Assembly (NCBI GenBank): GCA_964535715.1
Contig: CAZHUO010000002.1
Location: forward strand, 16,916 to 80,915
Direction: 5' to 3'
Origin: an uncultured Gammaproteobacteria bacterium
GTDB taxonomy: Bacteria; Patescibacteriota; Patescibacteriia; Buchananbacterales; UBA6539
DNA: 64,000 bases
Below are positions 1 to 62,567 of the stretch, one piece after another (position 1 is the first letter of the stretch; the number at the start of each line of letters is the position of its first letter). A model generated the notes under the pieces. That model was not told where the DNA came from. It did no database searches and worked only from the letters and a program-made list of their open reading frames with translations. Made by a program: the position numbers and the translations under genes.

Positions 1-63
1 GATGAAATTAAAGAAAAAGTGGAGCAGTTAATTAAAAGTCTTGAATTATCTAAATTAAATTGA
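1..63 (+). CDS. 3' end of an upstream CDS (partial; product unknown), reads ...DEIKEKVEQLIKSLELSKLN*
   Basis: Open frame 1 from the window edge to TGA at 61-63. AT-rich like the host background. Confidence 0.3.
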   Translation, partial: DEIKEKVEQLIKSLELSKLN

Positions 64-218
64 TAACAGGTTTTATGCCGCTGTAAGTTAACAGTTTTAC
101 AGCATCAGCTGGACGTTTTTTGAAGAACTTGGTAAGATAAATATAACAATTTAACTAATCAACATAGCGCCGTTTTTGGCGTGTTTTTTAAAACTGCATA
201 ATCACCTTTACGTCATCT

Positions 219-249
219 TTGACGTCTTGACATAAAAAACCCTATAATA
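219..249 (+). promoter_or_regulatory. sigma70-like promoter candidate upstream of the peptide/rSAM cassette
   Basis: Overlapping TTGACG (219-224) and TTGACA (227-232), then TATAAT at 244-249. Spacers of 19 and 11 nt are non-ideal. An adjacent CGTCA..TGACG inverted repeat is present. Confidence 0.35.
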
Positions 250-436
250 TAAGATAAAGCGTTAAATTGGTGGCAAAGACGATTATTTTAGTGGTTAATT
301 TTTGTTGATTTTACCCCTTAAACCTATTATTTTGAGGGAAGTCTAAAAGTATAAACCAACAGAAACTAGCCACTTGCTAGATTGTCCTTTGTCATAAGCG
401 AACAGAATGTGAATGGTCGAAAGGAGGTGACAGGTC

Positions 437-520
437 ATGTTGAAAGAGTTCACGCTCGAGAAGCGGTCAAAGGTATCCAGCCGCACGTTGAAGGACGCGG
501 TGGACATGGACCAGGACTAG
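437..520 (+). CDS. 27-aa Cys-free small peptide MLKEFTLEKRSKVSSRTLKDAVDMDQD; candidate RiPP precursor for the downstream rSAM-SPASM enzyme
   Basis: ATG at 437 lies 7 nt after GAAAGGAGGTGA, the strongest SD in the window. TAG is at 518-520. Its position and GC content match the cassette. It is below the ORF-track length cutoff. Confidence 0.5.
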   Translation: MLKEFTLEKRSKVSSRTLKDAVDMDQD

Positions 521-532
521 GCCGAGAAGCGT

Positions 533-576
533 GGGGAGGATGGTGGCTTTGCTAAAGGCAAGGTGCCATCCTCCCC
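533..576 (+). promoter_or_regulatory. perfect 11-bp stem-loop between the peptide ORF and the rSAM gene, with no T-run; attenuator or mRNA-stabiliser candidate
   Basis: GGGGAGGATGG (533-543) and CCATCCTCCCC (566-576) are exact reverse complements around a 22-nt loop. Confidence 0.55.
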
Positions 577-605
577 CAACATTCATTCAGGAAAGGAAAA
601 AAGTG

Positions 606-2018
606 ATGTATCCAATACTGGTTGATTGCCGAGTAAGGGGGGCTGAAGGTGACTATTACCTTCATCGTTACCGTACGGGTGATGAGTTTGTTCTTGACTC
701 GTTACAAGCACAAATTCTGCAAGCCTGCACAGGAGAGCATGATGTTGAATGGTTGTCCGGAGAGTTCAATCAGCCAGCCGCAGATATCATGATTTTCCTT
801 GACACGCTCCAAGAGGCTGGTCTGGTGATGAAAAGCGAGGGGGCAACAAAGATTGAGTTCGCAGCGCTCACCAAGCCGCCTTACCTCCGCGAAGTTCATA
901 TTGACGCCACAGGCTGGTGCAATCTCTTTGGAAAGTGTAAGCATTGTTACGGCCGACGAACATTCGAAGAAGCTACTAATGACCAGCTAACAACGGAAGA
1001 GATGATACAGCTCATCGAACAGCTTGGCCAGATGAATGTGGCAAACTGCGTAATGTCCGGTGGGGAAGTGTTCATGAGAAAAGATTTACCCCAACTGATC
1101 TCTTGTCTGGCCCAGCAGCACATCCATCTCACCGGTATCTTCACGAATGGAACGATTTATCGCGATGACGTTGTCGATGCGCTTCAAAAGGAAAAGATGA
1201 GGACTCGTTTTCTTGTCAGCCTTGATGGCCACACTCCCGAGATTCATGACTTTATGCGGGGTCACGGTAACTTTCAAAAGACGGTCGATTTCATCGGTCG
1301 GATTCACGCCGCAGGATTTCCGGTAACAATCAATACCGTGGTCATCAAGCAGAACGTTGCGCACCTAATGGCGATGGCTCGTTTCCTGGAAATCCTTGGA
1401 ACGGTTTACCTCTGGCGCATATCGGTACCTCGCGAACAGGGAGAGACGATTGTCAACAAGGAGCTTATTCTGCCAGACTGGAATGACGTTTTTGCAGCCT
1501 ATGAGCAATTGATCAGGTATGCAATCGCTTCCACTGGCGGGATGCAGTACCAGATCAGCTCAATCTTCAAGTCAGCGTTGCTTGAAGAGCCAATCTACTA
1601 CCTGTTCCGCCCGGAAAGTAGTTGCTGCGAATACAAGCGCAACTCCATTACGGTTAAGCCGAATGGCAAGGTTACTCCTTGTACCGCCTTTGACAATTTC
1701 GTCTTGGGTGATGTCAGGCAAAGCTCGTTGGCCGACATCTGGTACAGTGATCTGACGCAGTCATTCAAGGTTCTTCCAGTTCAAGCAACGGCCTGCAGAG
1801 GCTGCGAACTGTTGCCGTATTGTGGAGGTGGTTGTCGCAAAGTGGCATGGGAGATGCACGGCAGCGCTTTGGCTCTGGACGACAGCGCTTGCCCACTTTA
1901 CCGGTTTGCCCGGGATGTTGTCGGGCCCCTTCTGGAGGAACAGGGCGTAACGGCAGAACTGCTTGAGCGCCCCAGTACCTATCGGTTCGATCCACGCATC
2001 ATCGATCACGCGATATGA
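606..2018 (+). CDS. radical SAM/SPASM-domain peptide-modifying enzyme with an N-terminal PqqD-like RiPP recognition element
   Basis: The rSAM cluster is CNLFGKCKHC (Cx5Cx2C), with a GGE-like motif in VMSGGEVF. The C-terminal SPASM Cys pattern is CCEYK...C(T)AFDN...CRGCELLPYCGGGCR...CP. The N-terminal ~85 aa has a PqqD-like pattern. Start is moved from the ORF-track 531 to ATG 606, which has an AGGAAAGGAAAA RBS-like stretch and avoids the hairpin. Confidence 0.85.
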   Translation: MYPILVDCRVRGAEGDYYLHRYRTGDEFVLDSLQAQILQACTGEHDVEWLSGEFNQPAADIMIFLDTLQEAGLVMKSEGATKIEFAALTKPPYLREVHIDATGWCNLFGKCKHCYGRRTFEEATNDQLTTEEMIQLIEQLGQMNVANCVMSGGEVFMRKDLPQLISCLAQQHIHLTGIFTNGTIYRDDVVDALQKEKMRTRFLVSLDGHTPEIHDFMRGHGNFQKTVDFIGRIHAAGFPVTINTVVIKQNVAHLMAMARFLEILGTVYLWRISVPREQGETIVNKELILPDWNDVFAAYEQLIRYAIASTGGMQYQISSIFKSALLEEPIYYLFRPESSCCEYKRNSITVKPNGKVTPCTAFDNFVLGDVRQSSLADIWYSDLTQSFKVLPVQATACRGCELLPYCGGGCRKVAWEMHGSALALDDSACPLYRFARDVVGPLLEEQGVTAELLERPSTYRFDPRIIDHAI

Positions 2019-2033
2019 GCTAATTAAGTTATG

Positions 2034-2075
2034 GAGGGGAGGAGTGAAAACCACGTCTTCCCTCCAATATTTTTA
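2034..2075 (+). terminator. intrinsic terminator after the rSAM gene
   Basis: GGAGGGG..CCCTCC imperfect extended stem (2034-2066) is followed by AATATTTTTAT. Confidence 0.55.
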
Positions 2076-2884
2076 TGAAAATGAAAAAAAATAAAACTAG
2101 GAAAGAGTGGTGGCAAAAAATTTTTGATCAGGATTATATTAAAACTTACATTGATATCACACCACAAGAGCTTACGGACAAGCAAGTCTCTTTTTTAATA
2201 AATAAATTAAAGCCGATTTCCAAAAAGAAAATTTTAGATTTGGGATGTGGTTATGGCCGTCATACTCTAAAGCTTGCTAAGCTCGGTTGTTCGATTATTG
2301 GTCTTGATTATTCCAAATTATTTTTGAATATTGCCAAAAGACAAGCCGCAAAAGAAGGCATTAAAGCAAATTTTGTTACAGGCGATATGAGGAAGCTTGG
2401 ATTTAAAAATAAGTTTGACGCGGTTATTTGTATGTTTACATCCTTTGGCTATTTTAATGAATACACAGATCATGAGGATACAATTAGGGGTGTTGCCAAA
2501 GCCCTTAAGTCAAAGGGAATATTTTTATTAGATTTGAATAACCCAGCTCGTCGGTTAGCAGGGATAATCAAGAATGGTAAGCTGGACAAAAAAAGGAAAA
2601 TTTTAATCACTAAAAAGATTTTTAAATTATCGAACGGTTTGAAAGTTACGATAACGCAAGAATTTGATTTGATTAAAATGCGTTGGAAATTAATTAGGCA
2701 GTGGAAGGAAGGTAAGAGGAATAAAAAGTATTCTTCAGATATTTATTTATTTACCTTGCCGGAAATTAAACACTTACTGGAACACAATGGATTTAAAGTT
2801 GAGAAAACATGGGGCGATTTTGACGGTTCACTGTTTAATCTTGAGAGTCGAAGGTTGATTATTTTAGCAAGAAAAAAATTGTAA
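2075..2884 (+). CDS. class I SAM-dependent methyltransferase
   Basis: ILDLGCGYGRHT motif I, plus motif II/III spacing. Confidence 0.8.
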   Translation: MKMKKNKTRKEWWQKIFDQDYIKTYIDITPQELTDKQVSFLINKLKPISKKKILDLGCGYGRHTLKLAKLGCSIIGLDYSKLFLNIAKRQAAKEGIKANFVTGDMRKLGFKNKFDAVICMFTSFGYFNEYTDHEDTIRGVAKALKSKGIFLLDLNNPARRLAGIIKNGKLDKKRKILITKKIFKLSNGLKVTITQEFDLIKMRWKLIRQWKEGKRNKKYSSDIYLFTLPEIKHLLEHNGFKVEKTWGDFDGSLFNLESRRLIILARKKL

Positions 2885-2895
2885 TATTTTGCATT

Positions 2896-3312
2896 ATGAA
2901 AATTCGTTGGGCTAAAACCAATAAAGATTTTACCTATATTGCTTCTTTATTTAACCCAAAAAATAACCGATATGTTTGGCCGAAAACTCAAACCGCTAAG
3001 CAAGTTAAACAAAACTGCAGTGAAACCAGACGTTATTATATTTTATTAGTTAAGAATAAACCAGTTGGCTGGTTTAACACTCGTTTGTCCGACAGTAAAG
3101 AAGCAACCATTGGAATAATTATTGACTATCCCTACCAAGGTCAAGGTTTTGGCAAACAAGCTATGGCTTTAATTAAAAAGGAAGCAAAAAAATTAGGAAT
3201 GAGAAGATTGCGGCTGGAAGTTTTTTTGGATAATAAATCAGCTATCAATCTTTATAAGAAAACCGGCTTTCGAACAGCAGCTAAAGTGGTGGTAATGGAA
3301 AAGAAAATTTAG
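2896..3312 (+). CDS. GNAT family N-acetyltransferase
   Basis: QGQGFGKQAM....LYKKTGF acetyl-CoA binding motifs. Confidence 0.8.
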   Translation: MKIRWAKTNKDFTYIASLFNPKNNRYVWPKTQTAKQVKQNCSETRRYYILLVKNKPVGWFNTRLSDSKEATIGIIIDYPYQGQGFGKQAMALIKKEAKKLGMRRLRLEVFLDNKSAINLYKKTGFRTAAKVVVMEKKI

Positions 3313-3346
3313 ATATCTAAACTTATTTTGTTAAAAATTATTAACC

Positions 3347-3760
3347 ATGCGAGTACGAGCGATTATAATTAAGGACAATAAAATAATCCTGATTAAAAGA
3401 GTAAGACCTAATGAAACATATTGGGTTTTTCCCGGTGGCGGTGTTGATTCTGGCGAAACAAAAGAAAATGCCCTAGCTAGAGAAATTAAGGAAGAATTGG
3501 GTTTGGATATTGAAGTAAAAGAATTATTTCTAAAAAGGCAATCAGATAAACCGGGAATGGAAGGTATAATGGAATACTTTTTTTCGGCAGATATTATCGG
3601 TGGTGAGCTCGGCAGTGGCGATGGTCCGGAATACCAGAGTGGTACTAATTATGAAGGTAATTACAAAATTGATTTAATTGACATTGGTGATTTAGACCAA
3701 ATCAATTTAAAACCAAAAGAAGCTAAGGATTTGGTTCTAAAATTATCTAGTCAAAAATGA
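3347..3760 (+). CDS. NUDIX hydrolase
   Basis: Nudix box GGGVDSGETKENALAREIKEELGL. Confidence 0.8.
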   Translation: MRVRAIIIKDNKIILIKRVRPNETYWVFPGGGVDSGETKENALAREIKEELGLDIEVKELFLKRQSDKPGMEGIMEYFFSADIIGGELGSGDGPEYQSGTNYEGNYKIDLIDIGDLDQINLKPKEAKDLVLKLSSQK

Positions 3761-4386
3761 AAAGAATTATTTTAACATCCCACGGATTCGAAAAAAATAA
3801 GAAATTAAAGCAGCAACTTCTTGGATTACTGCCATCTTTGACTAAAAATTTATCCGTTGTTATTATAACAACCGCTTCAGCCGAATGGAAGGAAAAAAAT
3901 AAACATGCCGTTTCCGCTAAACAAGCGTTGGAAAATATGGGATTTAAAAAGGTAGCTTTTCTGGACGTAGAATTTGAAAGTCCAAATAAGCTAAAGGATT
4001 TTAATTTAATTTATATTTGTGGTGGAAATCCATTTTATCTTTTATATCACCTTAAGAAAAGCGGAGCTGACAAAGTAATTCAGAAGCTAGCAGACAAGGG
4101 AGTTATCTTAGTTGGTGTTAGCGCTGGTGCTGTAGTATTAGGCCCAAGTATCAAAGTCGCTCAATATTTTGATGATGAGAAAAATATTGTTAAGTTAAAA
4201 AATTTTTCTGCCTTGAAACTAACTGACATTATAATTTTACCTCATTATAAAATAGAATACGAAAATAAAGTAAAAGATTTTGAAAAAGAAAATCATTGTC
4301 AGGTTACTCGTCTAAAAGATAGCCAAGGCGTTACGGTAATTGAAGATAAAATTAAGCCCATTGATTTCGGCGGCCGCAAACCGTAA
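3757..4386 (+). CDS. peptidase E-like (S51 family) / class I glutamine amidotransferase-like
   Basis: GVSAGAVV nucleophile elbow, the ICGGNPFYLL region and a ~210-aa size. Confidence 0.7.
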   Translation: MKRIILTSHGFEKNKKLKQQLLGLLPSLTKNLSVVIITTASAEWKEKNKHAVSAKQALENMGFKKVAFLDVEFESPNKLKDFNLIYICGGNPFYLLYHLKKSGADKVIQKLADKGVILVGVSAGAVVLGPSIKVAQYFDDEKNIVKLKNFSALKLTDIIILPHYKIEYENKVKDFEKENHCQVTRLKDSQGVTVIEDKIKPIDFGGRKP

Positions 4387-4419
4387 TTTGCGGTACAAGT
4401 AGCCTACTTTCAGTATCAG

Positions 4420-4738
4420 AATAATGGAATTGGATCAAATACTAATTACTCAGACTTAAAAACAGGACACACCAGTGTCCGATTTTTGGGACAGCACAAT
4501 ATCCCTGTCCCGTGTCCGATTTGTCCAATTTTGTAGAATTAGGCCTGACCGAGATGCCTCAAACTCGCCTCTAGTAAATACTCTAAATAACCCTTATAAT
4601 GCTTGTAAAGTTTCGGTTCTAGACCGAGGTACACTGCCAGAAAATCGCCGAAGAGGCGTTTTTTTGCCTGTCCGCCTCTCTGGCTCGCCATTCGGTGGCT
4701 TGCGGGGTATAATGTAACTAATAATTAATTCCATTATT
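4420..4738 (+). other. GC-richer structured noncoding element flanked by 12-bp inverted repeats; candidate ncRNA or miniature inverted-repeat element
   Basis: AATAATGGAATT (4420-4431) pairs with AATTCCATTATT (4727-4738). Internal perfect hairpins are GGACAC-acca-GTGTCC (4465-4480) and GGGACAG..CTGTCCC (4488-4511). GTGTCCGATTT is a direct repeat. Confidence 0.3.
4646..4665 (+). terminator. intrinsic terminator inside the structured element
   Basis: CGCC-gaaga-GGCG followed by TTTTTTT. Confidence 0.5.
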
Positions 4739-4754
4739 TTTAACCAATATCATT

Positions 4755-5090
4755 ATGCAATTTCTAATCAATTGGCTAATCTATACTTTAGCCATTATCA
4801 TTACCGCCTATTTGCTGCCGGGCGCAACGATTGAAAGCCTTTTTGCCGCATTTGTTTTGGCTTTGGTTTTGGGGTTGATTAACGCGGTTTTAAAGCCGAT
4901 AATAATTATTTTGACTTTGCCGATTAATATTTTAACCCTGGGACTTTTGACATTGGTGATTAACGCCTTACTGGTGATGCTGGCCGATTTTATTGTGCCG
5001 GGTTTTTCCGTTGGCAGTTTTTGGTGGGCGCTTTTATTCAGCATCATTTTGTCAATTATCAATCTGGTGTTAAGCCGGATTAAAGAGTAA
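4755..5090 (+). CDS. phage holin family IV / DUF360 (YvlD-like) small membrane protein
   Basis: 111 aa with four hydrophobic segments and a typical DUF360 sequence style. Confidence 0.65.
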   Translation: MQFLINWLIYTLAIIITAYLLPGATIESLFAAFVLALVLGLINAVLKPIIIILTLPINILTLGLLTLVINALLVMLADFIVPGFSVGSFWWALLFSIILSIINLVLSRIKE

Positions 5091-5185
5091 ATAATCGAAT
5101 ATAAGTTTTCGTCGTAAAATGTTGTGTGAATTTTTGTCGTAGTCTATCCGCCAAAAGATACCATTTAGTTGTTGATATTTTTTGT

Positions 5186-5214
5186 TTGACTGAGTTTTGA
5201 GGCGGGTATATAAT
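5186..5214 (+). promoter_or_regulatory. sigma70-like promoter
   Basis: TTGACT (5186-5191), a 17-nt spacer, then TATAAT (5209-5214). Confidence 0.5.
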
Positions 5215-5267
5215 ACCAAAGCTAATTATTTAATCGAGATTGTTATGGTAAAAACCGTAAATAATCA

Positions 5268-5366
5268 ACCCCGCACTAATTTTATAATCAATTTTATAAA
5301 TATATCTTTTAATTATAATTATTTAATAATAAATGTATGACTCAAAACACTAAATTAGTGCGGGGT
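5268..5366 (+). promoter_or_regulatory. 15-bp perfect inverted repeat enclosing the start region of the 5337 gene; translational or attenuation control candidate
   Basis: ACCCCGCACTAATTT (5268-5282) and AAATTAGTGCGGGGT (5352-5366) are exact reverse complements. The AT-rich loop between them contains the ATG at 5337. Confidence 0.45.
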
Positions 5367-5663
5367 CAACATAGCGCAACAATTGATGACGTTTTAGAGG
5401 CAGTCAATATTTTTGCCGACGAAACTCATCAGGAGTTTAGTCATGTCAAAGGCGAGATATCGGAGATTAATAGTAACATAACAAGAATGGTTACCAAAGA
5501 TTACCTGGATGACAAGATGTCGGATTTAAGAGGCGATTTAGTAGTGATGATGAGAAAAGAAGATAATAAGCTAAAAACTCTGGTCGGTGTATTAAAAGAA
5601 AAGTCAGTTTTAGATAGCAGTGATGTCAGCCGGATATATTCAATGGAGCCTTTTGCTCAATAA
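5337..5663 (+). CDS. hypothetical protein (108 aa, charged, likely coiled-coil)
   Basis: ORF with the promoter above and the terminator below. No recognisable domain. Confidence 0.55.
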   Translation: MTQNTKLVRGQHSATIDDVLEAVNIFADETHQEFSHVKGEISEINSNITRMVTKDYLDDKMSDLRGDLVVMMRKEDNKLKTLVGVLKEKSVLDSSDVSRIYSMEPFAQ

Positions 5664-5682
5664 TCTGAATTAATTAAATTAA

Positions 5683-5706
5683 AGCCCGCCATTGGCGGCT
5701 TTTTTG
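5683..5706 (+). terminator. intrinsic terminator
   Basis: GCCCGCC-attg-GCGGC followed by TTTTTTGATTTTTTT. Confidence 0.65.
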
Positions 5707-5822
5707 ATTTTTTTAAGTCTCTTTTTTTATAGCTAAGAATTCTATTTCTGCTGTTTTCTCCCAAGCTTGTAAGTAATTATAACCTTATCTATAATGTAAG
5801 ACAGGGAAGTAATTTTATAATT

Positions 5823-6845
5823 ATGGATTTAGATAGAATAAATGAAATACTAAAATCATATCAGTTTTTTCGGCGCAAGCAGGTTGATGAAGCGATTTTT
5901 AATCGCTTGGCTTCTAATTGGTCTGAAGTTTCCAACTTGCCCAAAGATCTGATTGAAATTCTTCAAAATGAATGCCCTTTGGAAATCAAAGCGAAAACCT
6001 TTGAAACCAAAGACAAAAAAACCGTAAAAGCTGCAATTATATTGTCAGACAATAAGGAAATCGAAACTGTTTTAATGCGTCATAAAGACAATCGCAATAC
6101 GGTCTGCGTATCTTGCCAGGTCGGCTGCGCTTTAAACTGCGCTTTTTGCGCAACCGGCCAGCAGGGCTTTTGCCGAGATCTGACATCTTCGGAAATTATT
6201 TTGCAGGTTTTATATTTTGCCCGCTTTTTAAAAAAAGAAAACGCCAAAATTACCAATGTTGTTTTTATGGGCATGGGCGAGCCGTTTTTGAATTATGATA
6301 ATGTAATGAAGGCGATTTATTGGCTGAATGACAAAGATAAATTTAATTTAGGAAGCCGCCAAATTTCCATTTCAACTTCAGGAATTATTGAAGGCATAAA
6401 TAAGCTTGCCAAAGAGCCATTGCAGGTAAATTTGGCTTTTTCATTTCATGCTGTTGATAACGATTTACGAACCAAGCTTATGCCGATTAACCAAACTAAT
6501 TCCTTGAGTAAAGTATTGGAGGCAATCGGCAATTATATTGAGAAAACAAATCGGCGGGTAATGATTGAATATCTAATGCTTGAAAATATTAATGATTCAG
6601 AAAATTCGGCTCTTGACTTGGCCAAGCTTTTAAAGAAAAAACTGCATCGACTTTTTTTTGTCAATTTGATCAGTTACAATGCGACTGAAAAATTTCAGCC
6701 TTCAAACCCGGAAACAATAAAAAAATTCAAAAGCATTTTGGAAAAAGAGGGAATTGTTGTGGTTCAAAGATATCGCTTCGGAACAGATATTAAAGCCGCC
6801 TGCGGCCAGCTGGCTTTAAATAGAGTAAAATTAAAAGACAAATAA
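5823..6845 (+). CDS. rlmN: 23S rRNA/tRNA adenine-C2 methyltransferase RlmN (radical SAM; RlmN/Cfr family)
   Basis: CALNCAFCATG radical SAM motif, upstream Cys in CVSCQVGC, and MGMGEPFLNYDNV. Confidence 0.9.
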   Translation: MDLDRINEILKSYQFFRRKQVDEAIFNRLASNWSEVSNLPKDLIEILQNECPLEIKAKTFETKDKKTVKAAIILSDNKEIETVLMRHKDNRNTVCVSCQVGCALNCAFCATGQQGFCRDLTSSEIILQVLYFARFLKKENAKITNVVFMGMGEPFLNYDNVMKAIYWLNDKDKFNLGSRQISISTSGIIEGINKLAKEPLQVNLAFSFHAVDNDLRTKLMPINQTNSLSKVLEAIGNYIEKTNRRVMIEYLMLENINDSENSALDLAKLLKKKLHRLFFVNLISYNATEKFQPSNPETIKKFKSILEKEGIVVVQRYRFGTDIKAACGQLALNRVKLKDK

Positions 6846-6846
6846 T

Positions 6847-7674
6847 GTGAAAAAACTTTTTTATTTATTTTTATTAATATTTTTTTTCTTTTCATTTTAT
6901 TTAGGCTTAAAATTTTTTTACATTCAGAAAGAAAATAAAAGCCAAATCAATAGAGAAAAATTAGAAGAAACCGAAATCAAAGAGCAAAAAATAATTCCAG
7001 AACACGCCAAGGTGCCGATTCTAGTTTATCATCATATCAGGGATTTTTTGCCAAAAGACAGCGCAAATAGCCGGACTTTTATTGTTCCCGCTTCTGATTT
7101 TGCCAATCAGCTTAAATATTTGAAAGATAATGGCTTTGAAGCAATTTCCTTTAAAAATTTACTTGATTATTTTACCGGTGATTTTTCTATGCCAAACAAG
7201 CCGATAATCATTTCATTTGACGACGGGTTGATTAATCAATACCAAAATGCATTTCCGCTGCTCAAAGAATACGGTTTTTCCGCAACATTTTTTATTTTTA
7301 CAAACCCCATAGGAAAAAGCGAAAATTATATGAGCTGGGAAAATGTCAAAGAATTGAATGATGCGGGAATGGAATTTGGCATTCACGGCCATTACCATCT
7401 TTATTTTGACAAAATCAGCCCTGATGAGCTTGATAAAGAAATTGTTTTCAGCAAACAAGTACTAGAGGAAAAGATTAATAGCATGATCGATGTTATTGCC
7501 TATCCTTTTGGCAGTTATAACGATGAAGCATTGAATAAAATAAAAAAAGCTGGCTTTTTTGCTGCGAGAGGGATTACTAATGGCGTAATACATTATAAAG
7601 ATGATTTTTATGATTTAAATAGTTATTTTATAACGGATGATTTTTCGCGTTTTAAAAATATTGTTGAACAATAA
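6847..7674 (+). CDS. polysaccharide deacetylase family (NodB/CE4) membrane-anchored protein
   Basis: N-terminal TM, IISFDDG, HGHYH. GTG start. Confidence 0.7.
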   Translation: MKKLFYLFLLIFFFFSFYLGLKFFYIQKENKSQINREKLEETEIKEQKIIPEHAKVPILVYHHIRDFLPKDSANSRTFIVPASDFANQLKYLKDNGFEAISFKNLLDYFTGDFSMPNKPIIISFDDGLINQYQNAFPLLKEYGFSATFFIFTNPIGKSENYMSWENVKELNDAGMEFGIHGHYHLYFDKISPDELDKEIVFSKQVLEEKINSMIDVIAYPFGSYNDEALNKIKKAGFFAARGITNGVIHYKDDFYDLNSYFITDDFSRFKNIVEQ

Positions 7675-7832
7675 AATCCGCCTTAAATTGTAATAATATA
7701 TCGGCAAATTACGCCCTTGTCTAATATTTTATACTTAATGATTAAATCAGTCTTAAAAAACAAATGATTTTCTTGGCAAAAATATTGAAATACGCTATAA
7801 TAAATATATAATTAATAATTTTCTTAAAAAAA

Positions 7833-8114
7833 ATGGCTAAAATGACCAAATCTCAAACGCTTGCAGCATTGTCTGAAAGCACTGAGTTAAGCAAAAAAGA
7901 CGTAGCTAATCTACTTGATAAGCTAGTCGAGTTAGCTTATTCAGAAGTCAAGAAAAGCGGCGAATTTGCCATCCCTGGTGTTGGTAAATTAGTAAAAATG
8001 AACAGAAAAGCCAGAATGGGAAGAAATCCTGCCACCGGCGAAGAAATCAAAATCCCGGCAAAAACTGTTGTTAAATTCAGAGTTGCCAAAGCCGCAAAAG
8101 AAGCTGTTTTATAA
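7833..8114 (+). CDS. hup: HU family DNA-binding protein
   Basis: KSGEFAIPGVGKL....FRVAKAAKEA signature, 93 aa. Confidence 0.9.
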   Translation: MAKMTKSQTLAALSESTELSKKDVANLLDKLVELAYSEVKKSGEFAIPGVGKLVKMNRKARMGRNPATGEEIKIPAKTVVKFRVAKAAKEAVL

Positions 8115-8133
8115 AAGCTTTATAAAAATAAAG

Positions 8134-8160
8134 GAGCCTGAAATTTTAGGCTCTTTTATT
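8134..8160 (+). terminator. intrinsic terminator
   Basis: GAGCCT-gaaatttt-AGGCTC followed by TTTTATT. Confidence 0.6.
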
Positions 8161-8230
8161 ATTCTAAGCAAGTTAGCATTTTTTCATTAACCTTTTTTCA
8201 AAAATAATGTATAATTAAAATAATGATTTT

Positions 8231-9583
8231 ATGACAAAAAAATGCGATAAAAAAACAAAAGCCTGGATAGTTTCTGTTGATATGGGTTATGGCCATCAGC
8301 GGCCCGCTCATGCTTTAAGGCACTTGGCAAATAAAGGCAGAGTCATCACCGCAAATAATTATCCCGGCATTCCTTCTTTTGATCGAAAAATTTGGTATGA
8401 AAGCCGGAGATTTTATGAATTTATGTCGCGTTTTAAGAATGTGCCTATTATCGGGGATAAGGCTTGGAAGATATATGATAACATGCAGGAAATTCCGGAA
8501 TTTTATCCAAAACGCGATTTGTCGAAGCTTAGCCTTCAGATCAGGCAGATTTATTCAATTATTGAGTCTAAAAAATGGGGCAGCCATTTAATAAATAAAT
8601 TGTCAAAAAATCCTTTGCCTTTAGTCTCAACTTTTTTTATCTCGGCATTTATGGCCGAAACTTTTAAATATCCGGGAGAAATATATTGTTTGGCTACCGA
8701 TACCGATATTAATCGGGCCTGGGCGCCAAAACAGCCGGCTTCTTCCAAGATAAAATATTTTGCTCCAAGTTATCGAGTGGTGGAAAGGCTTAAGCTATAC
8801 GGCGTTCCGGCCGAAAAGATTTTTTTAACCGGTTTTCCTTTGCCTTTGGAAAACACCGGCAACCTGAATCTTAATATTTTAAAAAAAGATTTAAAAAACA
8901 GGTTGGCTAATTTGGATCCAAATGGCAATTATTGGAAAACGTACCATGATGTTGCCGAAAAACATGCAGGTATTAAAAAATTGCCGGCTAAATCTGATCA
9001 TATACTGACCTTAATGTTTGCCGTCGGCGGCGCCGGTGCTCAAAGAGAAATCGGAGTGCAAATAATTAAAAGTTTGAAAAATAAGATTATTAAAAAGAAA
9101 ATAAGGGTAATTCTGGTGGCTGGAATTCATAATAGCCTAAATCAATTTTTCCGCAAATCAGTTGTGGATAACGGCTTGAAAAAGGAATTGGAAAATGGAG
9201 TAAAGATTATTTTTTCTGCCGGAAAATATGATTATTTTAAAAAATTTAATAAAGCATTGCGTACAACTGATGTTTTATGGACTAAGCCGTCCGAGCTGAG
9301 TTTTTATTGCGCTTTGGGAATACCGATTATTATTGCACCGCCAATAGGTTCTCAGGAAGAATTCAACCGGCGCTGGCTTAGGACTATTGGATCAGCTTCA
9401 AGTCAATTTGATCCAAAATATTGTAACGAATGGTTTTTTGATTGGGTTAATTCCGGCTGGCTGGCTGAAGCGGCAATGCAGGGTTTTGTTGAAGCGCCGA
9501 AATTCGGGACTTATAATATTGAAAAGATAATTTGCCATGAGTTTGAAAAGGCTAAAAAGCCCAAGATGGTTTTGCAGTATTAA
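8231..9583 (+). CDS. GT-B glycosyltransferase, MGDG synthase/UgtP-like (GT28-like)
   Basis: N-terminal VDMGYGHQRPAHAL (GxGH) and C-terminal IIIAPPIGSQEEFNRRWLRTIGSA, which resembles the UgtP/MGD PGQE..N...L...G.A region. Confidence 0.5.
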   Translation: MTKKCDKKTKAWIVSVDMGYGHQRPAHALRHLANKGRVITANNYPGIPSFDRKIWYESRRFYEFMSRFKNVPIIGDKAWKIYDNMQEIPEFYPKRDLSKLSLQIRQIYSIIESKKWGSHLINKLSKNPLPLVSTFFISAFMAETFKYPGEIYCLATDTDINRAWAPKQPASSKIKYFAPSYRVVERLKLYGVPAEKIFLTGFPLPLENTGNLNLNILKKDLKNRLANLDPNGNYWKTYHDVAEKHAGIKKLPAKSDHILTLMFAVGGAGAQREIGVQIIKSLKNKIIKKKIRVILVAGIHNSLNQFFRKSVVDNGLKKELENGVKIIFSAGKYDYFKKFNKALRTTDVLWTKPSELSFYCALGIPIIIAPPIGSQEEFNRRWLRTIGSASSQFDPKYCNEWFFDWVNSGWLAEAAMQGFVEAPKFGTYNIEKIICHEFEKAKKPKMVLQY

Positions 9584-49238: not shown

Positions 49239-51083
49239 ATGTGTGGTATAAATGGTTTTAATTGGCAAGACGAAGGATTGATAAAAAAAATGAATCAGCG
49301 AATTAGTCATCGTGGTTTTGATGATAGTGGATTTTTTCTTACTCAAAATGTTTCTCTTGGCCACCAGCGACTATCAATTCTTGATTTGTCAGAAAAAGGC
49401 CACCAGCCGATGAGTTTCAAAAATTTGACCATTATTTATAATGGTGAACTTTATAATTATCAGGAGATTAGAGATGAATTAAAAAAAAGCGGTCATCAAT
49501 TTGAATCTGATACGGACACGGAGGTAATTTTAAAAAGTTACTATGCCTGGGGAACTAAATGTTTAGATAAATTTAATGGGATTTTTGTTTTAGCAATTTT
49601 GGATCAGAAAAAACAGGAGTTATTCTTAGCGCGCGATCAAATTGGAGTTAAGCCTTTATTTTATTATTTAAAGGATAAAACATTTATCTTTTCTTCAGAA
49701 ATTAAGGCAATCTTAGAACATAAGATTGATAAGACTATCTTACCGGAACGAATAAGTTTTGTTTACAAAATGTCTTGCCTGCCCGGGGAATTGACCATGT
49801 TTAAATACATTCATCAATTACCGGCTGCCCATTATGTTGTTTTTAAAAATAATTTTTTGGTTAAAAAATGTTATTGGCAATTGACCGATTTTACGGATAT
49901 AAATAATAAAGATGAAATAGCAACAAAAATAAGGGAAATTTTGAACGATTCAGTAAAAAAGCAAATGATTAGCGATGTGCCATTGGGAGTTTTTTTGTCT
50001 GGTGGTATTGATTCTAGCGTGATAACGATGTTGGCAAGTCGGCATTCCCATCAGCCGGTTAAAACTTTTTCCGTTGGTTTTGATGTCGAGCAAGAATCAG
50101 AGAAGTTCAATGCCGATTTTTATTTAGCGCGCCAGACTGCTCAATATTTTAAAACTGATCATCAAGAATTATTTTTAAAAAAAGGACAAGCTCTCCAATA
50201 TATGGATTTTTTGGCTGATAATTTGGAAATGCCTAACAACATGACGACTTCTATTCCGAGTTTTTGGTTATCAAAATGGGCTAAAAAACAGGTTAGTGTA
50301 GTTTTAGGCGGAGATGGCGGAGATGAACTTTTTGGCGGTTATCAGCGCTATCAGCTTAGCCTAATTATTTCCAATTGGTTAAGAATTCCTTCGTTATTAC
50401 GCAAGGTGGCACCTTACAAATTAATTGAGGTGATTGCAAAAAAGAGAGATTTGATCTCTCGGCTTAGAACTGAGGATGAACTTAAACGCTATCTTAGCTT
50501 TAAGTGCCACCGAGATGAAGATGCACCAGCTATTTTTAAAGAAATTTATAAGCCCGAATTGGTTGATGAATATTTAGCTGAAAATTTTTTTAGGAAGCCT
50601 TTGCCGACTAAAGATTTTGAAAAATATTTTATGCTTGTAGATTTACAAACTTGGCTTGTTGATCATTCATTAATTAGATCAGACAAGGTGACAATGAACT
50701 TTGCCTTAGAAGAACGTGTTCCAATGCTTGATCGTAGATTAGTTGAGCTTTCTGTAAAAATTCCAACAAAATATAAACTAGATTCAAGAAATACAAAAAA
50801 GATTTTCAAAGAAACTTTTAAAAATGATTTGCCAGAATTTTTGTTTAATCAGCCAAAGCGTGGCTGGCTTGCGCCGGCGGCAAAATGGTTAAGATTTGAA
50901 ATGAAAGAATTTGCTTATGATGTTTTATCTGATAATTTTGTTCCGGAATCAAAAAATTATTTTGATTTAAAATTAGCTAGAGATTTGCTAGATAAACACA
51001 TAAAAGGCGAACGGTATAATCTTCATTTGCTTTGGATATTAATAACTTGGCAGCTTTGGTATAAAAAAAATATTTTGAGATAA
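49239..51083 (+). CDS. asnB: asparagine synthase (glutamine-hydrolysing) family amidotransferase
   Basis: N-terminal MCGI Cys2 nucleophile and SGGIDSS PP-loop. Confidence 0.85.
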   Translation: MCGINGFNWQDEGLIKKMNQRISHRGFDDSGFFLTQNVSLGHQRLSILDLSEKGHQPMSFKNLTIIYNGELYNYQEIRDELKKSGHQFESDTDTEVILKSYYAWGTKCLDKFNGIFVLAILDQKKQELFLARDQIGVKPLFYYLKDKTFIFSSEIKAILEHKIDKTILPERISFVYKMSCLPGELTMFKYIHQLPAAHYVVFKNNFLVKKCYWQLTDFTDINNKDEIATKIREILNDSVKKQMISDVPLGVFLSGGIDSSVITMLASRHSHQPVKTFSVGFDVEQESEKFNADFYLARQTAQYFKTDHQELFLKKGQALQYMDFLADNLEMPNNMTTSIPSFWLSKWAKKQVSVVLGGDGGDELFGGYQRYQLSLIISNWLRIPSLLRKVAPYKLIEVIAKKRDLISRLRTEDELKRYLSFKCHRDEDAPAIFKEIYKPELVDEYLAENFFRKPLPTKDFEKYFMLVDLQTWLVDHSLIRSDKVTMNFALEERVPMLDRRLVELSVKIPTKYKLDSRNTKKIFKETFKNDLPEFLFNQPKRGWLAPAAKWLRFEMKEFAYDVLSDNFVPESKNYFDLKLARDLLDKHIKGERYNLHLLWILITWQLWYKKNILR

Positions 51084-59007: not shown

Positions 59008-59256
59008 ATGAATCAAGAAATTAAGCCAAACGCAGTTTATACTACCGAGGAAACTCAAGAATTACTTAAAATCAGCAGGAGTACTATTAAACGAATGCTT
59101 AAGAAAGGCTTGATCCGAGCAAATAAAGTTGGCGCCCAATATCGAATTTTAGGTAAAGAGATTTTAAGATTAGTTTCGCCTGAAATTGAGAAAGAGGCGG
59201 CTAAGCGCTACATGAAGGTTAAGGGTAAGGTAGTTGAAACCATTAATAAATGGTAG
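59008..59256 (+). CDS. small helix-turn-helix DNA-binding protein (excisionase/MerR-like HTH_17)
   Basis: YTTEETQELLKISRSTIKRMLKKGLI HTH. Confidence 0.55.
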   Translation: MNQEIKPNAVYTTEETQELLKISRSTIKRMLKKGLIRANKVGAQYRILGKEILRLVSPEIEKEAAKRYMKVKGKVVETINKW

Positions 59257-59272
59257 TTTTTTTTATTTTATT

Positions 59273-61069
59273 ATGACAGCCAAAAATAATCGCGTCGTTA
59301 CAATAATTAAATTATCCAATAAAGCTTTTGGTAAGTATAAAAAGCAGATTTTAATTTTGATTCTTTTAGGATTTGCTGGGGCATTTTTGGAAGGCATTGG
59401 AGTAAATGCCATTATTCCGCTTTTTTCTTTTGTTATTGGCGATACTCAAAATAATAGCGATATGATTTCGCAAGTAATTGAACAGTTTTTTGGATTTATA
59501 AAAATTGATTTCAATGTAAACTATTTGCTGATTTTTATCATAATTATGTTTGTCTTAAGATCATTTATTAAAGTTTATCTTGATTATGTAAGAATAAAGA
59601 TTACTGCAGAGTATGAGAATGAAACCCGTAACTTCATTTTTCAGAAAATATTAAAATCTGATTGGCCACATTTAATAAAACAAAAATTAGGATACCTCGA
59701 AAATATTATGCTAATAGACGTTCCTTATAGTGCCCTTATCCTTCGGGAAATTAGTACTATTATAATGTTAGCTACGAGTTTGATTGTTTATCTTTTGGTG
59801 GCTTTTAATATTAATTTAATAATTACACTTTTAACCTTAGCTTTGGGGTTGATAATTTTTTTGGTTTTAAAGCCCCTAAATTATAAGACAAAAGTCTTAT
59901 CTACTGATTCTGCCAAGCAGAATAAAAACATTACTCACCATATTACGGAAAATATTTTAGGAATTAAAACCGTAAAAAGTATGTGGGTTTCTTCCGGTGT
60001 TGAAGAAAAAGGAAAATATTTTTTTGATAAACTCTATAATATTAAAATAAAAATTTTTGTTATCAAAAGTATTATTAGTTCGTTTATTCAGCCAATAGGT
60101 TTAATTTTTGTTTGTTTGGTTTTTGCTTTTACTTATAAATCCTCGAGTTTTAATCTAGCTTCTTTGGCGGCAATTATTTATTTAATTCAGAAAATTTTTA
60201 CTTATATTCAACAACTTCAGCAAAGTCTAAATATTATGAATGAAAAATTGCCTTATTTAAAAAGTTCTCTTGATTATCAAGAGCAAGCCATTAAAAATGA
60301 AGAAGAAAATTATGGAAATAAGAAGTTTGTCTTTAATGACGAATTAAGATTCAACAATGTTAATTTTAAATATAGTGAAAACGATAATGAAAGAAAAGTG
60401 CTGAATGATATTAGTTTTACTGTTAAAAAAGGAGAGATGGTCGGTATGATTGGTCCTTCTGGCGTGGGTAAAACTACTTTAGTCGATTTAATATTAAGAC
60501 TTTTGAAACCGGATAGCGGCAGTATTACCTTGGATGGTGAAGATATATCAAAAATTGATCTAAAATCTTGGCGTAAGAATATTGGATATATATCTCAAGA
60601 TATGTTTTTAATGAATGACACAATTGCCAATAATATTAAATTTTATGATAATTCTATTACTGATGATAATTTAATTAAAGCGGCTAAGATGGCAAATATT
60701 TACGAATTTATTGAAAATTTACCGGATAAATTTGAAACCAACATCGGCGAACGGGGAGTCAGGCTTTCCGCCGGTCAGCGCCAGAGAGTAGTGATTGCTC
60801 GTATTTTAGCTCATGGTCCGGAGATTTTAATTCTTGATGAAGCTACTAGTGCTCTTGATAATCAATCAGAAATTAAAATACAAAAAGTTTTAGATAATTT
60901 AAAGGGTAATATTACAGTTTTGGCAATTGCCCATCGGTTAACAACGGTCGAAGGATCGGATAAGCTTTTAATTGTAGAAAATGGATGTATCAGCGAACAA
61001 GGGCTTCCTCAGGAGTTATTAAAGAACAGGGAGTCTTATTTTTCTAAAACGTATAATCTAAAAAAATAA
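59273..61069 (+). CDS. ABC transporter, fused permease/ATP-binding exporter (MsbA/PglK/Wzk-like)
   Basis: Six TM segments, then GPSGVGKTT, LSAGQRQRVVIAR and ILILDEATSALD. First ATG used. Confidence 0.85.
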   Translation: MTAKNNRVVTIIKLSNKAFGKYKKQILILILLGFAGAFLEGIGVNAIIPLFSFVIGDTQNNSDMISQVIEQFFGFIKIDFNVNYLLIFIIIMFVLRSFIKVYLDYVRIKITAEYENETRNFIFQKILKSDWPHLIKQKLGYLENIMLIDVPYSALILREISTIIMLATSLIVYLLVAFNINLIITLLTLALGLIIFLVLKPLNYKTKVLSTDSAKQNKNITHHITENILGIKTVKSMWVSSGVEEKGKYFFDKLYNIKIKIFVIKSIISSFIQPIGLIFVCLVFAFTYKSSSFNLASLAAIIYLIQKIFTYIQQLQQSLNIMNEKLPYLKSSLDYQEQAIKNEEENYGNKKFVFNDELRFNNVNFKYSENDNERKVLNDISFTVKKGEMVGMIGPSGVGKTTLVDLILRLLKPDSGSITLDGEDISKIDLKSWRKNIGYISQDMFLMNDTIANNIKFYDNSITDDNLIKAAKMANIYEFIENLPDKFETNIGERGVRLSAGQRQRVVIARILAHGPEILILDEATSALDNQSEIKIQKVLDNLKGNITVLAIAHRLTTVEGSDKLLIVENGCISEQGLPQELLKNRESYFSKTYNLKK

Positions 61070-61070
61070 T

Positions 61071-62567
61071 ATGAAGGTTTGTTTTTTACTACAAAGAGAA
61101 TTTGCTTATATAGGCCATGATTTAGCTGTTCATTTGAAAAACCGTCATGGAATTGAAGAATTTTGTGCTTATGTATTAAATCGTCCGAGTTACAGGTTTC
61201 TTAAATTTCAAAAAGAAATTAATTATTCCAGTTTACTTTTAGATGAAGATCTTCACCGCAAGGCCGAAAAAGAAAAATTGGATTTGAAGTATGTAAAATT
61301 TTTAGAAGAAGAATATGGTATTCCTAATCTTTGGCCGTATGTTGAAGTCGACAGAATTATCCGTCTTAACCAATTGGTCAGAGAATATCCCATGGAAGCC
61401 AGAAAGTATACTCACGAGCAAATGATGATTCAAATTCAAGTTCGAGCCAAAGCCATTATTGAGATGCTGGAAAAAGAAAAGCCTGATTATTTGTTTTGTA
61501 CTGTTGTCGGCGGCATAGGGGGGCTATTACTTTTTAATATTGCCAAAAAAATGGGAATAAATGTCCGCATGATAATGCCGGGAAAAGTTGGGACAAGATA
61601 TCTAATTTCCGAGGCTTATGACAGTTTTGTAGAAATTGACAAGGAACTTGATTCTCTCATTGCAGACGGCAAAAATGTAGATAACTATGAAGAGGCTAAA
61701 AAAATTCTGATTGATTTTAGAAATCATCCGACTTCATATGCAAAAATGACAAATTTTTATTTAGAACGTGCCAGACAAATCAAACAGTTTGATTTTATTC
61801 TACCATCAAAAGTGGTCAGATATTTAAATTGGCTTTTTGGCAGGGTGTATTATTATTTTTCCCAAGAAGATAAATATGATTATACTTATATAAAAATTTT
61901 ACCAAAAATAAAGGATCAAATAGTTCGTAAATTGCGGGCAGTAAGGGGAATGAATGATCTCTTCGATGATATTGATTTGGATAATGAAGACTTTGTTTTT
62001 TTTCCTCTCCATATGGAACCAGAGACTACCTTGCTTCTTTATGCTTATAGATATACAAATCAGATTGAAGTAATAAAGCAGGTTGCAAAATCTTTGCCAA
62101 TTCATTTTAAACTTTATGTTAAAGAACACCCCCGCATGGTTGGTTTTAGGACTCGTAAATATTATAAGGAATTAAAGAAGATTCCCAACGTTAAATTAGT
62201 AAGACATCAGGCTAGCAGTCTGGAATTAATAAAGAAAGCCAGGCTGGTTACTGTCATTAGCGGTTCGGCTGGCTGGGAAGCTATTCAGCTGAAAATTCCA
62301 GTCATTACTTTTGGCGGAGTATTTTTTAACAAGCTTTCAATGGTCAAAAGTTGTGATAGTTATAATAAATTATCTAACATTGTAAAGCAGCAATTGGAAA
62401 ATTTTGATTATAACGAAGAAGAGATTATTAATTATGTTGGATTAATACTAAAACATAGCGTACTTGTTGATTTAAGACATCTTTGGCATCATGAATCAGA
62501 TAAAAAGAAAAAAAGAGAAGATCTAACAATATTAGCTGATTTAATTGCTGAGTATATAAAAAAATGA
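61071..62567 (+). CDS. hypothetical; possibly capsule polysaccharide biosynthesis (KpsS/KpsC-like Capsule_synth) family
   Basis: YVKEHPRM....VISGSAGWEAIQLKIPVITFGG resembles the KpsS/C C-terminal region. Weak, from memory. Confidence 0.35.
   Translation: MKVCFLLQREFAYIGHDLAVHLKNRHGIEEFCAYVLNRPSYRFLKFQKEINYSSLLLDEDLHRKAEKEKLDLKYVKFLEEEYGIPNLWPYVEVDRIIRLNQLVREYPMEARKYTHEQMMIQIQVRAKAIIEMLEKEKPDYLFCTVVGGIGGLLLFNIAKKMGINVRMIMPGKVGTRYLISEAYDSFVEIDKELDSLIADGKNVDNYEEAKKILIDFRNHPTSYAKMTNFYLERARQIKQFDFILPSKVVRYLNWLFGRVYYYFSQEDKYDYTYIKILPKIKDQIVRKLRAVRGMNDLFDDIDLDNEDFVFFPLHMEPETTLLLYAYRYTNQIEVIKQVAKSLPIHFKLYVKEHPRMVGFRTRKYYKELKKIPNVKLVRHQASSLELIKKARLVTVISGSAGWEAIQLKIPVITFGGVFFNKLSMVKSCDSYNKLSNIVKQQLENFDYNEEEIINYVGLILKHSVLVDLRHLWHHESDKKKKREDLTILADLIAEYIKK

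Follow-up and report, generated by a model that had tools for sequence, protein, structure and literature searches.

A conserved small open reading frame upstream of a radical SAM/SPASM gene in Patescibacteria: a well-supported precursor peptide with a possible link to class-I aminoacyl-tRNA synthetases

A 64,000-nt stretch of contig CAZHUO010000002.1 from a Patescibacteria genome (the 64-kb window in the following) carries a 27-codon open reading frame (ORF) directly upstream of a gene encoding a radical S-adenosylmethionine (SAM) enzyme with a SPASM domain. The interpretation of this small ORF as the gene of the precursor peptide of the neighbouring radical SAM/SPASM enzyme is well supported. 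Beyond this, we lean, though only just, towards a new family of ribosomally synthesised peptides that undergo modification after translation (RiPPs), in which a dipeptide site X-(D/N) would be converted into an antimetabolite or inhibitor directed against an aminoacyl-tRNA synthetase, while a synthetase or a GNAT acetyltransferase encoded nearby would protect the producer. The general type, a RiPP processed by a radical SAM/SPASM enzyme, is known; we classify as new the precursor family and its testable tie to class-I aminoacyl-tRNA synthetases.

The frame extends from the ATG at 437 to the TAG at 518-520 on the plus strand and encodes MLKEFTLEKRSKVSSRTLKDAVDMDQD, a peptide of 27 aa lacking Cys, Trp, and Tyr. 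A Shine-Dalgarno region, GAAAGGAGGTGA, is situated at 419-430 of the same strand, and the gap between the stop codon and the ATG at 606 of the radical SAM/SPASM gene measures 85 nt. Judged from the sequence, the peptide is presumably divided into a leader, represented by the leader-like part MLKEFTLEKR (consensus LKxFxLxxR), and a core, TLKDAVDMDQD.

Radical SAM proteins related to the enzyme of the window (P0001-P0052) comprise approximately 470 aa and share 29-100% identity at full-length coverage. They originate mostly from metagenome-assembled genomes (MAGs) of Patescibacteria, and some are from low-GC Alphaproteobacteria-like and Lachnospiraceae MAGs. Altogether 47 loci were retrieved, of which 29 lineages (designated in the form L001) have readable upstream DNA; L043 and L045 are more distant members, recovered when 1.84 billion representatives were searched with a profile, a search that suggests several dozen family clusters at 50% identity with scores above 300 bits. 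In all 29 lineages, mostly Patescibacteria, a small homologous ORF is located upstream of the radical SAM gene. Alignment of the peptides gave the pattern (M)LKxFxLxxR, approximately six residues, and (R/H)T-LK[AS][ST]-V-D-x-(D...), ending in an acidic tail. Near-invariance within the family is confined to Val22 and Asp23 of the window peptide, encoded at 500-505 of the plus strand, with V-D occurring in 25 of 26 aligned peptides; the variants are I-N (L031 and L043) and M-N (L045). The D/N of this X-(D/N) site stands 3-7 residues before the C-terminus of the peptide.

The ratio of nonsynonymous to synonymous changes (pN/pS) amounts to 0.15-0.30 for orthologue pairs and to 0.15-0.22 for the window gene compared to L001 and L002, with many synonymous third-position changes within the invariant core. 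Equivalent GGAGG-type Shine-Dalgarno sites precede the orthologous small ORFs, 6-9 nt upstream in loci with an ATG start. An untranslated chance ORF might be presumed due to the short length of the frame, its absence from the gene calls, and the scarcity of annotated relatives, since a profile search with the peptide recovered 10 called peptides among 5.8 billion protein clusters, each labelled "hypothetical". Conservation in 29 lineages, purifying selection, and the conserved Shine-Dalgarno site effectively refute this explanation, to which we assign a negligible probability. Due to these homologues, the low pN/pS, the conserved Shine-Dalgarno site, and a hairpin after the stop codon, the 27-codon ORF is confirmed as a real, conserved, and unannotated gene.

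The original prediction, made from the sequence of the window, had described an ORF of 27 aa free of Cys, Trp, and Tyr at 437-520 with a ribosome-binding site in front of a radical SAM-SPASM gene, which was confirmed on re-reading the sequence. Its proposal of a RiPP precursor candidate for the adjacent enzyme is borne out by the conserved small ORF that homologous cassettes carry at this position and by the RRE-like and maturase-like character of the enzyme (RRE, RiPP recognition element). It had also suggested a search for a conserved upstream ORF with an acidic C-terminus. The small ORF upstream of the radical SAM gene is indeed conserved, but the conserved site is Val22-Asp23 and not the acidic end as such.

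Between the two genes of the window a GC-rich intercistronic hairpin of approximately 20 bp is located at 533-576 of the plus strand (minimum free energy -35.7 kcal/mol, z -5.3), which is not followed by a U-run. Most loci possess a stable hairpin after the peptide stop codon (z -4 to -7) with compensatory changes, often followed by a U-run; the hairpin sequences differ from locus to locus, while the structures are equivalent. The order precursor gene, hairpin, and maturase gene is the usual layout of RiPP operons, and such a hairpin is also found in bacteriocin operons. The cassette would be a two-gene RiPP unit, in which the precursor is translated from its own strong ribosome-binding site on an mRNA ending in the hairpin, and the hairpin probably keeps the peptide transcript above the enzyme transcript.

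The radical SAM/SPASM maturase of the window (606-2018, plus strand; 470 aa) was identified by Pfam (Radical_SAM, E 9.5e-25; SPASM, E 4e-12), the family alignment, an AlphaFold2 model, and Foldseek. Due to the fact that all homologues begin at the corresponding position of the family alignment, the ATG at 606 (MYPILV...) is almost certainly the true start, and the mechanically assigned frame from the GTG at 531 is probably too long. Three cluster Cys residues are invariant in the family, in the window protein as C105-x5-C111-x2-C114. The window clade has the motif CX5CX2C (CNLFGKCKHC, 918-947, residues 105-114) as a result of a two-residue insertion, whereas the other members have the canonical CX3CX2C. 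Furthermore, the SPASM residues C341, G354, C359, C397, C400, C406, C410, and C429 are invariant, giving a full 7-Cys SPASM domain (pattern CX9-15GX4C...CX2CX5CX3C...C) for two auxiliary [4Fe-4S] clusters; equally invariant is the CxYK signature, which lies at the first of the SPASM Cys residues.

In the AlphaFold2 model (pLDDT 94), residues 1-77 form N-terminal beta strands followed by three helices. Foldseek gave full-length alignments to SkfB, SuiB, TigE, PqqE, and CteB at 14-19% identity. On the sequence level, the N-terminal domain matches the PqqD Pfam model below the cut-off (E 0.04-0.06), and one member gives a borderline match to HTH_47, with a score at the cut-off. The modelled N-terminal winged helix (approximately residues 1-90) may therefore be called RRE-like, not a proven RRE. 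It is this domain that probably holds the leader motif LKxFxLxxR.

A short precursor gene directly upstream of a radical SAM/SPASM enzyme gene is shared with SkfA/SkfB, SuiA/SuiB, CteA/CteB, PqqA/PqqE, and MftA/MftC. These systems also share with the window cassette the 7-Cys SPASM domain of the enzyme and the hairpin separating the genes; their enzymes have an N-terminal winged-helix recognition domain, to which the modelled RRE-like domain would correspond, and they are the best sequence and structure matches. In contrast, identity to these enzymes is 14-19%, the core described here lacks their Cys, Trp, and Tyr residues, and the window clade has the CX5CX2C motif. To our knowledge, linkage to an aminoacyl-tRNA synthetase is a feature of none of these five systems.

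Assignment to several established classes was rejected. A sactipeptide or ranthipeptide was rejected, because the window peptide has no Cys, Cys is unconserved in the family, and the scores for AlbA and StsB are far below the NCBIfam cut-offs; a streptide-type (KxxxW) or other aromatic crosslink was rejected for want of a conserved aromatic residue in the core and due to the WgkB score of 118 bits versus a cut-off of 650. PQQ biosynthesis needs Glu-X3-Tyr, but the window peptide has no Tyr (PqqE, TIGR02109, 105 versus 381 bits), and mycofactocin needs a C-terminal Gly-Val-Tyr, but the peptide ends in DMDQD (MftC, TIGR03962, 94.5 versus 265 bits). The best NCBIfam match, the SynChlorMet enzyme ScmE (TIGR04250), was rejected at 137 versus 400 bits, and no NCBIfam equivalog cut-off is reached by the window enzyme. 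Of the epipeptide epimerases (YydG/EpeE), EpeE appeared at Foldseek rank 45 (E 1e-7, TM score approximately 0.4). The window peptide matches no family in Pfam and NCBIfam. In the literature, with subscription-only papers and supplementary tables outside the scope, no account was found of the peptide motif, of this radical SAM family, or of a synthetase-linked radical SAM RiPP.

The original prediction had excluded thioether, Lys-Trp, Glu-Tyr, and Val-Tyr chemistries, a conclusion that applies to the family as a whole, as Cys, Trp, and Tyr are not conserved. Its candidate reactions for the enzyme were epimerisation or a crosslink on aliphatic or acidic residues. Its suggestion of a new precursor class agrees with the absence of peptide matches in Pfam and NCBIfam and of an enzyme equivalog, with the "hypothetical" label of the called copies, and with the literature. 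Outside its range were the co-variation of X with the neighbouring synthetase and the recurrence of a GNAT acetyltransferase and a methyltransferase as partners.

Flanking ORFs of the loci were clustered and then typed with Pfam and NCBIfam. A valyl-tRNA synthetase (ValRS) gene is located beside V-D cassettes in nine lineages and in at least five arrangements. In L004, L011, L015, L018, and L021 it is the next gene downstream in the same orientation. In L042 and L028 it lies upstream and points away from the cassette, in L032 it is convergent and placed beyond the methyltransferase gene, and in L040 it precedes the cassette in the same orientation. The ValRS proteins of the cassettes belong to three types (NF004349, NF000540, and NF009687) with a mutual identity of 27-66%. 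Under a binomial model (28 lineages, 0.002-0.006 per lineage), at least five independent ValRS adjacencies are expected by chance with a P of 3e-9 to 7e-7. In case of L043, the peptide ends in ...NLKSSINIAD (Ile-Asn), and an isoleucyl-tRNA synthetase (IleRS) gene lies 11 nt downstream of the radical SAM gene (TIGR00392, 901 bits versus 621). In case of L045, the peptide is MKKMTSGKMRPIARHTNLKATMNNDNA (Met-Asn), and the operon order is radical SAM, methyltransferase, second radical SAM, and methionyl-tRNA synthetase (MetRS), the latter with a truncated product scoring 387 bits for TIGR00398 versus a cut-off of 336. Thus the residue X of LK[AS][ST]-X-[D/N] is the cognate amino acid of the adjacent class-I synthetase in 11 of 11 lineages with such a neighbour.

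Upstream of the L043 cassette, a 43-codon ORF at 274-405 (MNIPEIEEKILAFWQKNKIFEKS...) shares 48% identity over 27 residues (3-29) with the intact IleRS. This ORF is the remnant N-terminus of a different ileS allele, and it looks as if the resident gene had been replaced by a module with its own ileS.

Several observations weigh against a functional tie between cassette and synthetase. No ValRS gene was found in the 64-kb window, and the Ile and Met matches are represented by one lineage each. L031, with an I-N peptide, has no IleRS gene on its 4.6-kb contig, in L007 (V-D) a threonyl-tRNA synthetase (ThrRS) gene follows the cassette, and L018 is an exception to a clean match, as a MetRS gene is also present upstream of its cassette. 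Of the nine ValRS cases, five have their arrangement in common and could descend from one ancestral event. By their scores, the synthetases beside the cassettes are ordinary housekeeping enzymes. Finally, 7 of the 11 synthetase genes stand downstream in the orientation of the cassette, a position that a regulatory leader peptide would also account for.

Such a leader peptide would act as an attenuator: the charging of tRNA-X would be sensed by ribosome pausing at the X codon, the hairpin would control read-through into the radical SAM gene with or without the synthetase gene, and the peptide would not be a substrate at all. The position of the hairpin directly after the ORF, followed by a U-run in many loci, agrees with this explanation, as do the identity of X with the downstream synthetase in L043, L045, and the loci with the order radical SAM then valS, and the four Met residues among the 27 residues of the L045 peptide. 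Attenuation cannot, however, reach the divergent, convergent, or upstream synthetase genes of L028, L042, L032, and L040; a synthetase gene lies elsewhere than downstream in 4 of 11 cases, and in 18 of 29 lineages, including the window, there is none. Moreover, the peptides have one aligned X codon and no run of regulatory codons, conservation on the amino acid level covers the whole peptide including the D/N and the leader motif, the window hairpin is devoid of a U-run, and the partner enzyme has a predicted RRE-like peptide-binding domain. We rejected membership in the attenuators on the single X codon, the missing U-run, and the position or absence of the synthetase gene, and regard this explanation as rather improbable.

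The window and other loci without a synthetase gene carry genes for a GNAT and/or a methyltransferase instead. In the window, a class-I SAM methyltransferase is encoded at 2075-2884 and a GNAT N-acetyltransferase at 2896-3312, both on the plus strand, assigned by Pfam and recurrent as partners in seven lineages each. Orthologues of the methyltransferase adjoin the radical SAM gene in L001, L002, L032, and L008, and a class-I methyltransferase is also present in L031 and L045; the best NCBIfam matches of the window methyltransferase, daptide_MTase and glycine/sarcosine N-methyltransferase, are below the cut-offs. GNAT orthologues of 34-61% identity are located directly downstream of the radical SAM gene in L003, L005, L016, L017, and L020. 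GNAT and cognate synthetase share none of the loci (7 versus 11 of the 29 lineages), an exclusion with a hypergeometric P of approximately 0.02, uncorrected for phylogeny. A point against the synthetase-directed interpretation is that the methyltransferase and GNAT genes have the GC content of the host and not that of the cassette.

Synthetase copies in biosynthetic gene clusters are known as self-resistance genes, and GNATs detoxify amino acid analogues or processed microcin C. In mupirocin (MupM, IleRS), borrelidin (ThrRS), albomycin (seryl-tRNA synthetase), and agrocin 84 (leucyl-tRNA synthetase), the linked synthetase type predicts the target of the product; these products are polyketides or nucleoside conjugates, in contrast to the radical SAM-modified ribosomal peptide proposed here. 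A related precedent is the observation that translation-fidelity genes mark amino-acid-analogue pathways (PMC13149037).

For the synthetase-directed RiPP that we slightly favour, the course of events would be as follows. With the leader bound, a 5'-deoxyadenosyl radical and two auxiliary clusters would modify the site LK[AS][ST]-X-[D/N], in the window Val22-Asp23. Since X tracks the synthetase while D/N and LK[AS][ST] stay constant, X (Val, Ile, or Met) would be the specificity residue matching the neighbouring ValRS, IleRS, or MetRS, and the X-(D/N) junction the part that is modified; the D/N after X is the more likely chemical handle, because it is conserved whatever X is. The enzyme might epimerise, desaturate, or decarboxylate the site or introduce a crosslink within it. 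The product, either the mature peptide or a fragment set free by proteolysis, would most likely act on the cognate class-I aminoacyl-tRNA synthetase, with self-protection provided by the co-inherited synthetase or, in the window, by the GNAT, which might acetylate a free amine. A tailoring role would fall to the methyltransferase. The comparison of the loci demonstrates the conservation of the peptide, the selection acting on it, the anatomy of the operon, the class of the enzyme, and the co-variation of X with the synthetase; the division into leader and core, the modification site, and the logic of targeting and immunity are what we infer.

Microcin C is a ribosomal peptide in which a residue sets the synthetase that is hit, with Asp/Asn at the warhead, and the GNAT MccE acetylates the processed toxin. 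Similarly, genes for a GNAT and for a SAM-dependent transferase-like protein are found with the cassette described here. The differences are as follows: the cassette contains a radical SAM enzyme gene instead of one for a ThiF/MccB-like adenylyltransferase, X-(D/N) is not C-terminal, and the proposed targets are the class-I enzymes ValRS, IleRS, or MetRS versus aspartyl-tRNA synthetase. Membership in the microcin C-like group was rejected, as the window cassette and most loci have no ThiF-like gene and a ThiF-domain gene occurs near L032 only, on the other strand.

It is tempting to speculate that the radical SAM enzyme turns the X-Asp/Asn junction into a non-hydrolysable aminoacyl-adenylate mimic, a codon-programmable synthetase poison and radical SAM counterpart of microcin C. 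On this route Asp/Asn could, for instance, be desaturated and the 5'-deoxyadenosyl radical added, and uptake and trimming would yield X linked to an adenosine-bearing Asp. Which of ValRS, IleRS, and MetRS is blocked would depend on the single residue X, immunity would be conferred by a GNAT or by the synthetase transferred with the cassette, and the carriers would be mainly Patescibacteria. Due to the rarity of natural adenosylation by radical SAM enzymes (bioRxiv 10.64898/2026.05.21.726688), we consider this route improbable.

Alternatively, the product could be a structural RiPP of ordinary type, in which Val, for example, undergoes epimerisation of the YydG/EpeE kind or becomes a cyclopropylglycine as with TvgB/TigE, and the synthetase neighbourhood would be coincidental or historical. 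Radical SAM epimerases and cyclopropyl synthases are known to target Val and Ile; TigE and TvgB convert these residues to cyclopropylglycines and belong to a family defined by the GYW motif, the Tyr of which is a ligand to Aux I (PMC10878394). TvgB and TigE resemble the present system in the radical SAM/SPASM domains, accompanied by an RRE in TvgB and TigE and by a putative one here, and in a precursor with conserved Val/Ile, TigE is among the top structural matches of Foldseek, and many loci have no synthetase gene. The TvgB/TigE precursors, in contrast, carry tandem TVGG/TIGSVS repeats versus a single site here, where one lineage has Met at this position. Membership in the cyclopropyl synthases was rejected, since GYW is absent from 52 of 52 family members and the precursor offers one site instead of a repeated V/I motif. 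Met at X is furthermore unsuited to a chemistry specific for beta-branched residues, EpeE is a weak structural match, and for at least five independent ValRS arrangements to arise by chance a P in the order of 1e-7 or less (3e-9 to 7e-7, see above) applies, to which the Ile and Met matches add; statistically, a coincidental neighbourhood is excluded. An ordinary structural RiPP is therefore, like the adenylate mimic, an explanation to which we give little credit.

A further explanation is that the peptide, like the precursors of PQQ or mycofactocin, serves as scaffold from which a small molecule or cofactor is derived: X-(D/N) would be crosslinked or modified in another way and excised for the cell's own use, and the synthetase would reflect only the fidelity or supply required by an X-like product and not a pair of weapon and immunity. 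In its favour, most loci consist of a minimal two-gene unit without dedicated protease or exporter, PqqE and MftC rank among the closest relatives by sequence and structure, the retention of the cassette by hosts with reduced genomes suggests a cellular function, and fidelity genes are found beside amino-acid-analogue pathways, as in the precedent cited above. These points are opposed by the occurrence of Val, Ile, or Met at X, which is odd for a single cofactor, by the PqqE and MftC scores far under the cut-offs, by the absence of PqqB/C/F- or MftB/D/E/F-like partners among the typed neighbours, and by the patchy distribution of the cassette across hosts and its mobile appearance (a GC island and integrase and secretion genes, see below). 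We regard the cofactor scaffold as unlikely, yet as the strongest of the alternatives to a synthetase-directed RiPP.

The host of the window cassette is close to Candidatus Buchananbacteria, as the alpha subunit of its 2-oxoacid oxidoreductase shares 72-78% identity with proteins of named MAGs. Within this genome the peptide and radical SAM genes form a compositional island with a GC content of 0.51-0.55 and a GC content at third codon positions (GC3) of 0.89 and 0.56, respectively, compared to a GC3 of 0.25-0.37 in the flanking genes. The same contrast is present in L001, L003, and L016 and suggests transfer or replacement of the two-gene core alone. A tyrosine recombinase gene of the phage integrase family (L024, 314-1807) and a gene for a TrwB/TraD-like type IV secretion system (T4SS) coupling protein (L021, 1082-2785) are located just upstream of the respective cassettes, which together with the deviating GC content suggests that the cassette resides on mobile elements. 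No family members were found among PLSDB plasmids and IMG/VR viral contigs. Genes encoding MFS transporters are situated directly upstream of the cassette in L007 and L039, and these and the integrase/T4SS genes would fit an exported mobile trait. In L041 (1066-2653), the radical SAM gene is broken into products of 54, 92, and 344 aa, and no precursor was found in the region examined; this locus is probably a decaying cassette.

Upstream of the peptide gene of the window, a terminator-like hairpin at 167-182 ends the preceding gene and is followed by a sigma-70-like promoter (TTGACG-18 nt-TATAAT, 11/12 positions) at 219-248 of the plus strand, predicted from the consensus match alone. In the 5' untranslated region (UTR), a conserved element of 33 nt, AGAAACTAGCCACTTGCTAGATTGTCCTTTGTC, occupies 361-393 of the plus strand with 32/33 identity to L001 and contains the palindrome CTAGC-N5-GCTAG, whereas the rest of the UTR has diverged between the two. 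The element was found in the window lineage and L001 only and could serve as an operator or act on the RNA level. An Rfam scan of 1-5000 gave noise only, with no known riboswitch or small RNA and a spurious microRNA match at the intercistronic hairpin, and a scan of 1-9000 for tRNA genes found none. Further downstream, approximately 370 nt at 4387-4754 contain no ORF, tRNA, or Rfam match and have a higher GC content (0.40-0.48). Here GTGTCCGATTT occurs twice (at approximately 4477 and 4512) in addition to the terminator-like GGCGTTTTTTTGCC, so that this stretch could be an uncharacterised RNA or regulatory region.

Downstream of the GNAT gene and on its strand, the window encodes a NUDIX hydrolase (3347-3760) and, overlapping it by 4 nt, a peptidase of the S51/aspartyl-dipeptidase-like type (3757-4386). 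Neither gene is conserved among the clustered neighbours of other loci; both could contribute to detoxification or processing of an Asp-containing, nucleotide-like product. Approximately 50-60 kb from the cassette, an asparagine-synthase-family gene with a weak score for a lasso-cyclase model (49239-51083) and genes for an MsbA/HlyB-type ABC exporter (59234-62567) are present.

Individual lineages carry additional genes. The second radical SAM gene of L045 (2540-3565; 341 aa) is lineage-specific, and directly downstream of the maturase gene there is an asparagine-synthase-like amidotransferase gene in L030 (5455-6990), a GT28/EryCIII-like glycosyltransferase gene in L025 (4330-5514), and a nitroreductase gene in L040 (3920-4426); all four are possible tailoring enzymes. 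In L032 alone, the cassette has a divergent operon upstream (1-3546, minus strand) with genes for a Glu/Leu/Phe/Val dehydrogenase, an adenylating enzyme of the PaaK-like type, and a protein with a ThiF domain, which is of interest with regard to amino acid or adenylate chemistry.

Patescibacteria, also referred to as the candidate phyla radiation (CPR), have tiny genomes with few recognised biosynthetic gene clusters, which makes a widespread and mobile two-gene peptide cassette notable in this group. The family demonstrates that ORFs under the length limits of gene callers can conceal whole RiPP families, and it points to a radical SAM/SPASM reaction at a Val/Ile/Met-Asp/Asn site outside the described chemistries. 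As the residue X of the precursor can be compared to the type of the neighbouring synthetase, the target of the product becomes a testable prediction. The co-variation suggests that the scaffold can be re-aimed at another synthetase by the exchange of one codon; if true, antibiotic discovery would benefit from this, and genome mining would gain a rule.

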